Shown here in pieces: positions 10,673 to 61,475 of a stretch of 64,000 nt of DNA; position 1 is the first letter of the stretch; each line of letters begins with the position of its first letter. Source of the DNA: a virus. Its lineage: Duplodnaviria; Caudoviricetes. A program made the position numbers and the translations under genes. The notes below the pieces were generated by a model, which saw nothing but the letters and a program-made list of their open reading frames with translations, was not told the DNA's origin and did not search any database. The stretch spans positions 7,693-71,692 of IMG/VR virus record IMGVR_UViG_3300002307_000048. The stretch is one strand, 5' to 3'.

Positions 10673-11722
10673 TTATTTTATCACCGCTTCAAAATCCTTA
10701 CCATCTATCGTAACCTTAACAACAGTACCTGATTTTATAACTGTTTCATTTTCGGACTCTTTTTCTTCAGGTAAACCTACCTCGTTAAGTTCGCCAAAAC
10801 ACACCGTGCCATGTTCCAGTTTTCCACACGTTATTTGCGTTTCTTCTTTAGTCGGAACTTTCCATAAAGCAAGTCCGGCAAAAATTCTTAGTTTGATGTT
10901 TAGGTTGATTTTACATTCTATTCTCAAACCTGCCTCGATGCTCGAACCTGCCTTGATGCTCGAACCTGCCTTGATGCCATAACCTGCCTTGATGCTCGAA
11001 CCTGCCTTGATGCTCAAACCTGCCTCGATGCCCCAACCTGCCTCGATGCTCAAATCTGCCTCGATGCCCCAACCTGCCTCGATGCTCAAATCTGCCTCGA
11101 TGCCCCAACCTGCCTTGATGCCCCAACCTGCCTTGATGCTCAAACCTGCCTTGATGCCATAACCTGCCTCGATGCCATAACCTGCCTTGATGCTCGAACC
11201 TGCCTTGATGCCCCAACCTGCCTCGATGCTCAAACCTGCCTCGATGCCATAACCTGCCTCGATGCTCAAACCTGCCTTGATGCTCGAACCTGCCTTGATG
11301 CTCAAACCTGCCTTGATGCTCGAACCTGCCTTGATGCCCCAATCTGCCTCGATGCCCCAACCTGCCTTGATGCTCAAATCTGCCTCGATGCTCAAACCTG
11401 CCTCGATGCCATAACCTGCCTCGATGCTCGAACCTGCCTCGATGCTCGAACCTGCCTTGATGCTCGAACCTGCCTTGATGCTCAAACCTGCCTCGATGCC
11501 CCAACCTGCCTCGATGCTCAAATCTGCCTCGATGCCCCAACCTGCCTTGATGCCCGAACCTGCCTTGGCTAAAATATAGCCACTAACTTTTAGGAACTTG
11601 AATTTTACCCATCCAATTTTTTCATCTATTTCAAGATTGCCATTGAATGATAGTATTTCATCGCTTCCTAAGAAGTTGCCATCCTTGTCAAAATCTGATT
11701 TTGTTAATTTTTTCGTTTCCAT
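10673..11722 (-). CDS. Hexapeptide-repeat (predicted beta-solenoid) protein
   Basis: 36 tandem I(K/E)A(G/D)(W/L/S/Y)(G/S) units flanked by unique N- and C-terminal segments. Confidence 0.85.
   Translation of the reverse strand: METKKLTKSDFDKDGNFLGSDEILSFNGNLEIDEKIGWVKFKFLKVSGYILAKAGSGIKAGWGIEADLSIEAGWGIEAGLSIKAGSSIKAGSSIEAGSSIEAGYGIEAGLSIEADLSIKAGWGIEADWGIKAGSSIKAGLSIKAGSSIKAGLSIEAGYGIEAGLSIEAGWGIKAGSSIKAGYGIEAGYGIKAGLSIKAGWGIKAGWGIEADLSIEAGWGIEADLSIEAGWGIEAGLSIKAGSSIKAGYGIKAGSSIKAGSSIEAGLRIECKINLNIKLRIFAGLALWKVPTKEETQITCGKLEHGTVCFGELNEVGLPEEKESENETVIKSGTVVKVTIDGKDFEAVIK
10922..11569 (-). repeat. 18-bp tandem repeat array, 36 units
   Basis: Coding-strand unit ATC-RAG-GCA-GRT-(TGG/TTG/TCG/TAT)-RGC; 648 bp counted by hand. 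Confidence 0.95.
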
Positions 11723-18304: not shown

Positions 18305-18379
18305 TCTGAAAAGAAGGATTCGAACCTTCGGCCTCCTGCTCCCAAAGCAGGCGCTCTACGCGAACTGAGCTATTTCCAG
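18305..18379 (-). tRNA. tRNA-Pro (UGG), CCA not encoded
   Basis: CTGGAAA/TTTTCAG acceptor, GCTC/GAGC D-stem, CCTGC-TT TGG GA-GCAGG anticodon arm, GAAGG-TTCGAAT-CCTTC T-arm. D-loop reads GCG instead of GG. Confidence 0.92.
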
Positions 18380-18386
18380 AAATTAG

Positions 18387-18462
18387 TTGCGAGGAAGGGA
18401 TTTGAACCCTTAATTATTAGGGTATGTGAGCCTAACGTGTTACCAGTTACGTCCACCTCACG
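18387..18462 (-). tRNA. Initiator-like tRNA-Met derivative with a 9-nt anticodon loop
   Basis: C1:A72 mismatch, acceptor CGTGAGG/CCTCGCA, T-arm AAGGG-TTCAAAT-CCCTT, anticodon arm TTAGG-CTCACATAC-CCTAA. Confidence 0.7.
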
Positions 18463-18531: not shown

Positions 18532-19476
18532 TTATGTACCGCATCCTTCACTTTCACAAGAGTAACCAGCATTAACCTCATGGATACGTTCTGCAGAAAG
18601 AGTCTCTTTATTCGCCATAATAGAATCATAGGACATTTTATTATCCAACCAAGTACCTTTACCCAACTGCTCTTGTCTAGCAAACCACCTCATTTTAGCA
18701 GGATTAATAATACATTCAGTCGCCAGGGTTTCTGGTTTTTTATGAAAACAACCCACACAATTTGAAATTGGGGGAAATTCTATTTGCCTACGTTCCTCAA
18801 ATAGATTACCTCCTAACCATCCATTATGTTTCCAGTAATCTTGTACATGACGTTTCTCTATCCTGTTCTTTATTAATGGCATGTGGCAAAAACGCCAATC
18901 AAAGGTTTCATGATGCATTTGTTTTGAACCATAAGTATTACACCATGTTGGTATTTTAAAACCTCCTTTGTTTTCCCCTCCATTAAAGAACCGTTCCATT
19001 CTATCATACTCGTCTGCCCGGAACCCAATTCTCATTTGAACCTTATCTTTTTTTGTATTACCCGTGCTTACTTGATAATACCACCATTCAAAAATTGGGA
19101 GCATTTTCATTTCTAAAGTACAATATCTCCTAGCCCAACTAGGTTACCTAGTTGGCTGACCTCCAAAAGTCCTTTTGGAGGTCAGCACATCATCAAACGA
19201 TTTTCCCCTTGTCCATATAATTTCAGAGCCTAACAACTGCTCTAGATCGCGCATGGCAATAATTGTCTTATCATCTTCGGCCGTGGCTATAAACTCTCCA
19301 TAAGTGGGTATTTGCTTTTCCAATTTATCATTAACATATTGGATTAGCTTTTTATCATCTGGCGCACACTCAGGATCATTTATGCATACAAGGCTAAAAA
19401 TATTATAATCGGCTGGATAATGAATAGCCATAAAACTGGAGGTTTCCCCTCCAGAAAGTGAATTAACTGTTTTCAT
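18532..19476 (-). pseudogene. PAPS-reductase-like (PP-loop) protein interrupted by one in-frame TAA at codon 111 (19144-19146)
   Basis: SLSGGETSS PP-loop; the two track ORFs are in the same frame and join as GGQPTR*PSWARRYCTLEMK; C-terminal CVGCF and CESEGCG cysteines. Could be a switchable gene rather than a dead one. Confidence 0.85.
19135..19155. repeat. Perfect 9-bp inverted repeat with a 3-nt spacer that is the premature stop codon
   Basis: Plus strand CCAACTAGG-TTA-CCTAGTTGG; minus (coding) strand CCAACTAGG-TAA-CCTAGTTGG. Confidence 0.95.
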
Positions 19477-19973
19477 TCCCATCCTGGTATTTGAAGTGAA
19501 AGTTGTTTACCGGCATTATCAAACCATTTCTTATCGCATACATTAAGCACTACTTTCGGAAAATACTTTGCCATGCGCTTAATCTTTGTTTTAGATTTGG
19601 CATCCAGATATCCCTTTACTTCGGAATACGAAATAGATCCATCATTAGCGATAACCTTAAAATCTATTTTGTAGGAATTGGTACCATGTTTTATCCCTTC
19701 AAACCAGAATGTTTCTGATTCATATTCCCAATCCTTAATAAGGTTTGTTCGAACCATAAAAGCCAGGTATCTGGCATAGTTCTTTTCCCATTTACTTCTC
19801 AGATAGTATCGCTTGCCGTCAATTTCAAACCATCCAGATTGATTATTAAAAACTCTCCGGGGCCGGTGAGGTAACTTAGGATTAAAGGGATTCTTTTTTT
19901 TAGCTTCTTTGACCTCTTTAGTGGCCCTTATAAGCTGTTCTTTTGGTGATTCCATTGATTTTTTCGTTGTCAT
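19473..19973 (-). CDS. PD-(D/E)xK endonuclease (T7 endonuclease I / DUF1064-like)
   Basis: YLRSKWE, WEYESETF, YKIDF and EVKGY motifs. Confidence 0.78.
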   Translation of the reverse strand: MTTKKSMESPKEQLIRATKEVKEAKKKNPFNPKLPHRPRRVFNNQSGWFEIDGKRYYLRSKWEKNYARYLAFMVRTNLIKDWEYESETFWFEGIKHGTNSYKIDFKVIANDGSISYSEVKGYLDAKSKTKIKRMAKYFPKVVLNVCDKKWFDNAGKQLSLQIPGWE

Positions 19974-20066: not shown

Positions 20067-20318
20067 TTATGCTGTAGTATTGATCGTGCTGATTATTGTA
20101 GCTACACTGGTAGCAGAATAATAAAGATCAGGAATGTTACCACTGGTCTGTACGGTAACAAGAGTTGCGCAACCCGCAACGGACGTATCCGGCTGGATTG
20201 ATAAAATTTTACTTACCGGGACACCAATGGTAACAGCAGATGATAATGGGTTACCATTATCATCGCCTGCGTTTTTCTTTAGGTATGCCAGTGATAGGGT
20301 TTGGATTGTTGATCCCAT
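20067..20318 (-). CDS. Hypothetical protein
   Basis: 83-aa ORF with its own promoter box and terminator. Confidence 0.7.
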   Translation of the reverse strand: MGSTIQTLSLAYLKKNAGDDNGNPLSSAVTIGVPVSKILSIQPDTSVAGCATLVTVQTSGNIPDLYYSATSVATIISTINTTA

Positions 20319-61167: not shown

Positions 61168-61475
61168 ATAACCTCCTTTTTTTCACCGGTGAAAAAATCA
61201 TCATCATATTCAACGATCATTGGAACATTGTAAAACTTTTTCCAGCAATATGCTTCGCCATTGGAATTTTTACGCCACAAATAGTAAACCATATCACCTT
61301 TTTCAAGAAAAGCTTCCTTGTCCTGAGTAATCAATGAAATAATCTCTTTACCTGTGCTCTTATCAATCTGAGGAGAGGCATAATACATTTCAGAGGTTTT
61401 CAAAGGAATTATAATCCTTCTGATTGGCCTATCAATGAAAATTCTACCTTCTTCGGTTATTGTGATTTCTTCCAT
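61164..61475 (-). CDS. Hypothetical protein
   Basis: 103-aa ORF in a packed operon. Confidence 0.55.
   Translation of the reverse strand: MEEITITEEGRIFIDRPIRRIIIPLKTSEMYYASPQIDKSTGKEIISLITQDKEAFLEKGDMVYYLWRKNSNGEAYCWKKFYNVPMIVEYDDDFFTGEKKEVI

Follow-up and report, generated by a model that had tools for sequence, protein, structure and literature searches.

Inverted repeats that flank an invertible stretch of DNA are a shared feature of several recombinase switches, among them fimS/FimBE, Hin, phage Mu Gin and P1 Cin. Such segments span hundreds of bases, depend on an invertase of their own, are conserved among relatives and exist in populations in either orientation. Template switching during replication has also been established as a mutational process acting on inverted repeats. 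In yeast coding DNA, it homogenises the arms of inverted repeats and inverts spacers of 2–5 nt when the arms exceed 9 bp, with spacer inversion constituting the intermolecular form of the process (PMC8604942). The yeast spacer flips are reversible, going back and forth among strains, and arm homogenisation and inversion have been detected together in one gene, in a survey which left out genes with premature stops (PMC8604942). Template switching has been reported to make perfect stems and keep them so, with changes that look compensatory (PMC8794818), and perfect inverted repeats conserved by this process have been described in proteobacteria (PMC5941160). A third point of comparison is the translational bypass in phage T4 gene 60, in which the codon immediately before a hairpin-borne stop is repeated further downstream.

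The locus described here is found in a 64-kb stretch of DNA (the window) within a 71,692-bp IMG/VR virus record rated complete. According to the original prediction, a PAPS-reductase-like gene in this phage is interrupted by a single TAA, which forms the spacer of a perfect inverted repeat and could flip to the Leu codon TTA, providing a recombinase-free, reversible phase-variation switch. The site resembles the recombinase switches in having inverted repeats on either side of a segment that would set the product through its orientation, but none of their hallmarks (length, invertase, conservation, both orientations) has been seen for it. The site also resembles template-switch cases (Ripley model; PMC8604942, PMC8794818, PMC5941160): perfect arms of 9–10 bp or more surround a spacer of 1–3 nt inside an ORF, the derived centre is the reverse complement of the presumed ancestral spacer with no recombinase needed, and a neighbouring stem is held perfect by a compensatory pair. 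The phage differs from these cases in the stop codon outcome, in the single-base change and in having no available sister lineage with ancestral arms. The stop is probably a recent one-off loss-of-function allele, plausibly originating from a replication template switch, and the predicted micro-inversion corresponds to a mutational process already documented in coding DNA (PMC8604942), while its role as a switch is unsupported.

The interrupted gene and its family

Nearly all genes of the window are carried on the minus strand, including a PAPS-reductase-like PP-loop ATPase gene of 316 codons (18532–19482) that ends in TAA and has one further, internal TAA at codon 113. The gene starts at 19482, or at a second ATG at 19476, and ends at 18532. 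The internal stop (19144–19146, minus strand; the plus strand reads tta) is preceded by a translated N-terminal fragment of 112 codons (19147–19482, minus strand) containing the SGGETSS PP-loop, which has been called from the second ATG on four contigs as a protein of 110 aa (P0123). The C-terminal part, comprising 203 codons with a RYCTxxMK motif and CxxC and CxSxGC cysteines (18535–19143, minus strand), is predicted to be untranslated.

Assignment of the protein draws on profile and fold comparisons. PHROG 424 (“phosphoadenosine phosphosulfate reductase”) matches the read-through protein with an E value of 1e-18 and the C-terminal part alone with an E value of 1.9e-11, and sequence searches of Pfam (including PAPS_reduct), NCBIfam and the PDB gave no match. 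A search of 5.8 billion proteins yielded 2955 homologues, mostly intact and of approximately 300 aa, which belong to Bacteroidota phages, prophages and MAGs. The PP-loop motif, SLSGGETSS, spans residues 8–16, where S8, S10, G12 and S15 are invariant and G11 and T14 are at least 90% conserved. An AlphaFold (AF2) model, made for the nearest intact homologue and not for the truncated protein (pLDDT 82.5), finds its best matches in APS/PAPS reductases (2goy_A, Z 9.4; 7rge_A, Z 8.9), followed by TilS, GMP synthetase, LarE, NcsA, MnmA and QueC, with Z values of 8–9.4 for APS/PAPS reductase, TilS, LarE and NcsA, and with weak Foldseek E values of 0.01–0.1. The N-terminal SGGxTSS loop, the predicted fold and the PHROG 424 annotation link the phage protein to APS/PAPS reductase, TilS, LarE, NcsA/TtuA, QueC and other PP-loop enzymes, while the phage protein stands apart from these in having no sequence match in the three databases. 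Taking into account the SGGETSS loop, PHROG 424 and the fold matches, the gene is a PP-loop ATPase. Since neither Pfam PAPS_reduct nor NCBIfam matches, it is filed at the level of the PAPS-reductase-like superfamily only and is not a PAPS reductase proper; at that level the label originally given to it is confirmed.

TAA is the ordinary terminator of this phage, ending 26 of the 29 genes in the window, and the long ORFs, one of them reaching 5,279 codons, are unbroken under table 11, which rules out reassignment of the codon. The residue that the stop replaces is a Leu which is essentially invariant across more than 100 homologues (at least 90% in the alignment column), with the surrounding motif reading TRLPSWARRYCT in 30 close homologues; the expectation of Leu at this position within a family motif was thus correct. 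Leu codons are found at 75 of 80 distinct homologous DNA sites (TTA 25, TTG 18, CTT 13, CTA 12, CTC 5, CTG 2), and the commonest of them, TTA, has TAA as its reverse complement and differs from it by one base. As had been proposed, the gene is intact apart from this codon, its only lesion. The C-terminal 203 codons retain 65 of the 68 positions that are at least 90% conserved, which fits a very young lesion, although an intact C-terminal half is equally expected if the gene is still expressed part of the time. Truncation at codon 113 was detected in no other lineage, the short proteins in the database stopping elsewhere. A functional split gene was considered and rejected, given that a product restarted at Met125 or Met127 would be without R119, C121 and T122.

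The same allele has been recovered from further datasets. Over a length of 4,333 nt, a Logan contig from SRR6220867 has 100% identity to the record and includes the TAA and both of the palindromes described below, and these are also present in scaffold_543 of the ENA assembly ERZ19032877 (SAMEA9560697, a different sample accession). The ENA scaffold matches the record over 18,019 nt with five mismatches, all of them at 11026–11055, far from the gene and inside a tandem array of 18-bp repeats (approximately 10922–11569), where they represent either real reshuffling of repeat units or assembly noise. The consensus of all three assemblies (IMG/VR record, SRR6220867 and ERZ19032877) is TAA. As the sequence is the same in Logan and ENA assemblies with different sample accessions, the TAA is a genuine base and not an artefact; the three assemblies amount to about one genotype, and so they establish the base call as real but not the age or stability of the allele. 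One near-identical genotype thus appears under three dataset labels, and the phage may be very clonal or very widespread.

The PP-loop gene sits in a replication/recombination module, with two tRNA genes, a weak replication-initiator match, DnaB and a RecE-like exonuclease located downstream. A tRNA-Pro(TGG) gene (18305–18379) adjoins the second tRNA gene (18387–18462, minus strand), which was missed by ARAGORN and scores 34.9 bits with the Rfam tRNA model (gathering score 29). The 9-nt anticodon loop of the latter, CUCACAUAC, looks like a CAU loop enlarged by two bases and holds no UUA anticodon, and no suppressor tRNA was detected in the 71.7-kb genome. No invertase gene occurs among the ten neighbouring genes. 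Directly upstream, a gene resembling Holliday-junction resolvases and PD-(D/E)xK endonucleases (19473–19973, minus strand; phrog_190, E 3e-12) shares 10 nt with the start of the PP-loop gene. Enzymes of this kind cut cruciforms, and the location of a resolvase-like gene next to the two palindromes could be either meaningful or accidental.

Two abutting palindromes

The stop codon lies at the centre of a perfect 21-nt palindrome at 19135–19155, which reads CCAACTAGG-TAA-CCTAGTTGG on the sense strand, covers the codons PTR-stop-PSW and occurs in this phage only. The presence and position of the repeat are as first described, while its form is not that of a 9-bp repeat with a TAA spacer: the outer bases of the TAA, T and A, pair too, giving an arrangement of 10+1+10 and not 9+3+9. 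Base 19145 is the sole unpaired base of the palindrome, and a 3-nt spacer inversion is consequently indistinguishable from a single A/T transversion. Each arm occurs once in the genome, and the flanks of the 21-mer are asymmetric (C at 19134 and C at 19156).

The chance of such a repeat had been put at 4^-9, a figure that proved too small because PTR-L-PSW is conserved and its codons are natural reverse complements of each other (CCA/TGG, ACT/AGT and AGG/CCT). Given the peptide and the codon usage of the phage, the probability of a perfect 9+3+9 repeat is 2.8e-3, approximately 700 times likelier. None of the 80 distinct homologous sites has perfect arms, the best reaching 7/9 and the PSW-type homologues ranging from 5/9 to 7/9. 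The perfect repeat at the stop is unusual, though far less so than first claimed.

The nearest relative is P0002 (loci L003 and L004), with 70% identity, and family-alignment scans of IMG/VR and GTDB genomes gave no other relative closer than 58%. At the stop site, this relative has the quasi-palindrome CCCACAAGG-CTA-CCATCTTGG, with 6/9 arm matches; at 70% identity it is too distant for the arm and centre changes to be assigned to one event. Overall identity between the L003 gene and the window gene is 71%, falling to 54% at third codon positions. The Ser codon AGT, which is TCT in the nearest relative, was considered as a mark of a multi-base event and dropped, AGT being the Ser codon that homologues most often use here.

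A second perfect palindrome, absent from the original prediction, abuts the 21-mer. It comprises 32 nt (15+2+15; 19155–19186), with base 19155 common to both palindromes, and encodes VLTSKRTFGGQP, a variable segment which forms an unstructured surface loop in the AF2 model. This palindrome is also perfect in the nearest relative (L003, 6291–6322), in spite of a protein divergence of approximately 30%. The L003 arms (GCTCACC...GGTGAGC) differ from those in the window (GCTGACC...GGTCAGC) by one compensatory pair, G4-to-C and C29-to-G, of which the CTG-to-CTC change is synonymous and the CAG-to-GAG change gives Q-to-E; the 2-nt spacer differs as well. The probability that a 15-bp stem would stay perfect at the average divergence of the gene is approximately 5e-5. 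The repeat is missing in other homologues of the same length class (L094–L097). As RNA, the palindrome folds at −37.8 kcal/mol (z −4.25), and it is either a functional hairpin, in RNA or DNA, or a stem kept perfect by arm-to-arm copying.

An IMG/VR exact-pattern scan with the core of the 32-mer gave no match, a metagenome scan with the same core found six unrelated hairpins only, none homologous to the gene, and no Rfam family matches either palindrome. A repeated mobile palindromic element was ruled out, with each arm sequence being single-copy in the genome and in L003, as was a terminator or promoter role, neither having been flagged and no U-tract following. On the scale of the window, six perfect inverted repeats with arms of at least 10 and a spacer of at most 4 are present against 0.47 expected from codon shuffles of the window, a 13-fold excess. 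Further examples are a 12+1+12 repeat at 716–740 (inside the ORF at 3–1001), an 11+4+11 repeat at 20239–20264 (inside an 83-codon ORF at 20067–20318) and two repeats located between ORFs, 10+0+10 at 61178–61197 and 23+4+23 at 2063–2112.

Origin of the stop codon

In the explanation that we consider probable, codon 113 of an accessory PP-loop gene would have changed from Leu TTA to the stop TAA, so that the product would now be a 112-residue N-terminal fragment devoid of both the RYCTxxMK motif and the cysteine cluster of the C-terminal part. The perfect palindrome would be the likely footprint of a template switch at the naturally quasi-palindromic PTR/PSW codons. One intermolecular switch, copying the reverse complement of CCT AGT TGG together with the centre, could have produced CCA ACT AGG and turned TTA into TAA; alternatively, an earlier switch may have perfected the arms, with a flip or point change at the centre coming later. 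A single template switch would explain why the sole stop in the gene coincides with the midpoint of a perfect repeat that is the only one of its kind. Template switching would account for the persistence of the neighbouring 15-bp-stem palindrome too, and that palindrome indicates that such repeats arise and stay perfect at this spot in this lineage. The same process could in principle flip the centre back. We infer both the template-switch origin of the stop and its recency as plausible; with a single-base difference and no close outgroup, the origin is not open to proof.

The main rival is a point mutation combined with coincidence, where the arms are perfect by codon choice and an unrelated T-to-A transversion occurred in the Leu codon. 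The change involves only one base, the PSW class of homologues already comes part of the way to matching arms, and a coincidence of 0.3% is bound to occur somewhere among thousands of homologues (2955 matches). Nonetheless, of 81 sites just this one has such a perfect repeat, with the stop precisely in its middle, the 21-mer abuts a second, conserved perfect palindrome, and repeats of this type are in 13-fold excess, which makes this account rather unlikely. When weighed directly against coincidence and point mutation, a template-switch origin is somewhat likelier, with rough odds, derived from the 2.8e-3 likelihood and the rarity of template switches relative to point mutations, that lie between roughly even and a few-fold in its favour.

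An evolved, recombinase-free phase-variation switch, in which the 21-mer would flip between TTA and TAA at a useful rate and toggle a nucleic-acid-modifying enzyme, is improbable. It is in keeping with such a switch that perfect arms around a short spacer are a documented substrate of reversible spacer flips (PMC8604942), that the downstream half of the gene is fully intact and that on/off variation is conceivable for an accessory gene. The inverted repeats flanking the segment are present (10+1+10, 19135–19155), but coexisting orientations were not seen in the consensus of the three assemblies, in IMG/VR or in the protein database. The assemblies hold only the OFF state (TAA) at consensus level. 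No intact (ON) allele of this phage, whole or as a fragment, was found among the 5.8 billion proteins, including by a region-restricted search, and an IMG/VR exact-pattern scan for the 21-mer with either centre gave no match. Moreover, the repeat shows no conservation beyond coding need: homologue alignment found the nearest relative to have 6/9 arm matches around CTA and no perfect repeat at any of the 80 sites, and truncated homologues elsewhere end at other codons. Since the repeat is lineage-specific and only OFF has been seen, a programmed reversible ON/OFF switch is unsupported by these sequence comparisons, contrary to the original prediction. Of the observations that would speak against that prediction, a single state in the assemblies and an unconserved repeat are largely what was found, while homologues do have Leu at the position in question. 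A working micro-switch in which ON and OFF phages would both be present at all times, with the adjacent 15-bp hairpin stalling replication and raising the flip rate, is marginally more doubtful still.

Recoding, by UAA readthrough or by a hop from AGG (codon 112) to an AGG 15 nt downstream, would give a full or near-full product, and had been offered as an alternative fate of the stop. The setting invites comparison with T4 gene 60, with a strong 15-bp hairpin immediately preceding the hairpin loop that holds the stop, matching AGG codons on either side of a 15-nt gap and a downstream frame that is open and conserved. However, the hop would delete LPSWAR, residues which are invariant or at least 90% conserved, and the gap in the phage gene differs from that of gene 60 in removing invariant residues, in having no identified nascent-peptide or landing signals and in not being conserved, as the stop and hairpin are missing from every relative (80 homologous sites). 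In addition, UAA is the standard terminator here, the genome has no suppressor tRNA, the odd tRNA loop CUCACAUAC being without a UUA anticodon, and downstream of the stop the only structure is the 3' arm. Bypass or readthrough is thus very improbable.

Inverted repeats are known to provoke systematic sequencing errors, and the 21-mers of the two states are mutual reverse complements, but a sequencing or assembly artefact at the palindrome can be dismissed almost entirely, as the same base is found in assemblies from different pipelines and sample accessions and k-mers longer than 21 take in the asymmetric flanks and are unambiguous.

Significance of coding palindromes

As a working switch the 21-mer would matter more, but the evidence points elsewhere. 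If the template-switch reading is true, the locus would represent a clean natural phage case of a gene knocked out in one step and possibly restored in one step. For annotation, it advises caution: an in-frame stop in the middle of a coding palindrome should not automatically be taken for a mistake or for a signal of recoding. The neighbouring 32-nt palindrome indicates that perfect coding palindromes can outlast a protein divergence of approximately 30% with compensatory change. Such persistence is usually taken to prove a functional RNA structure, and template switching can yield it without selection.
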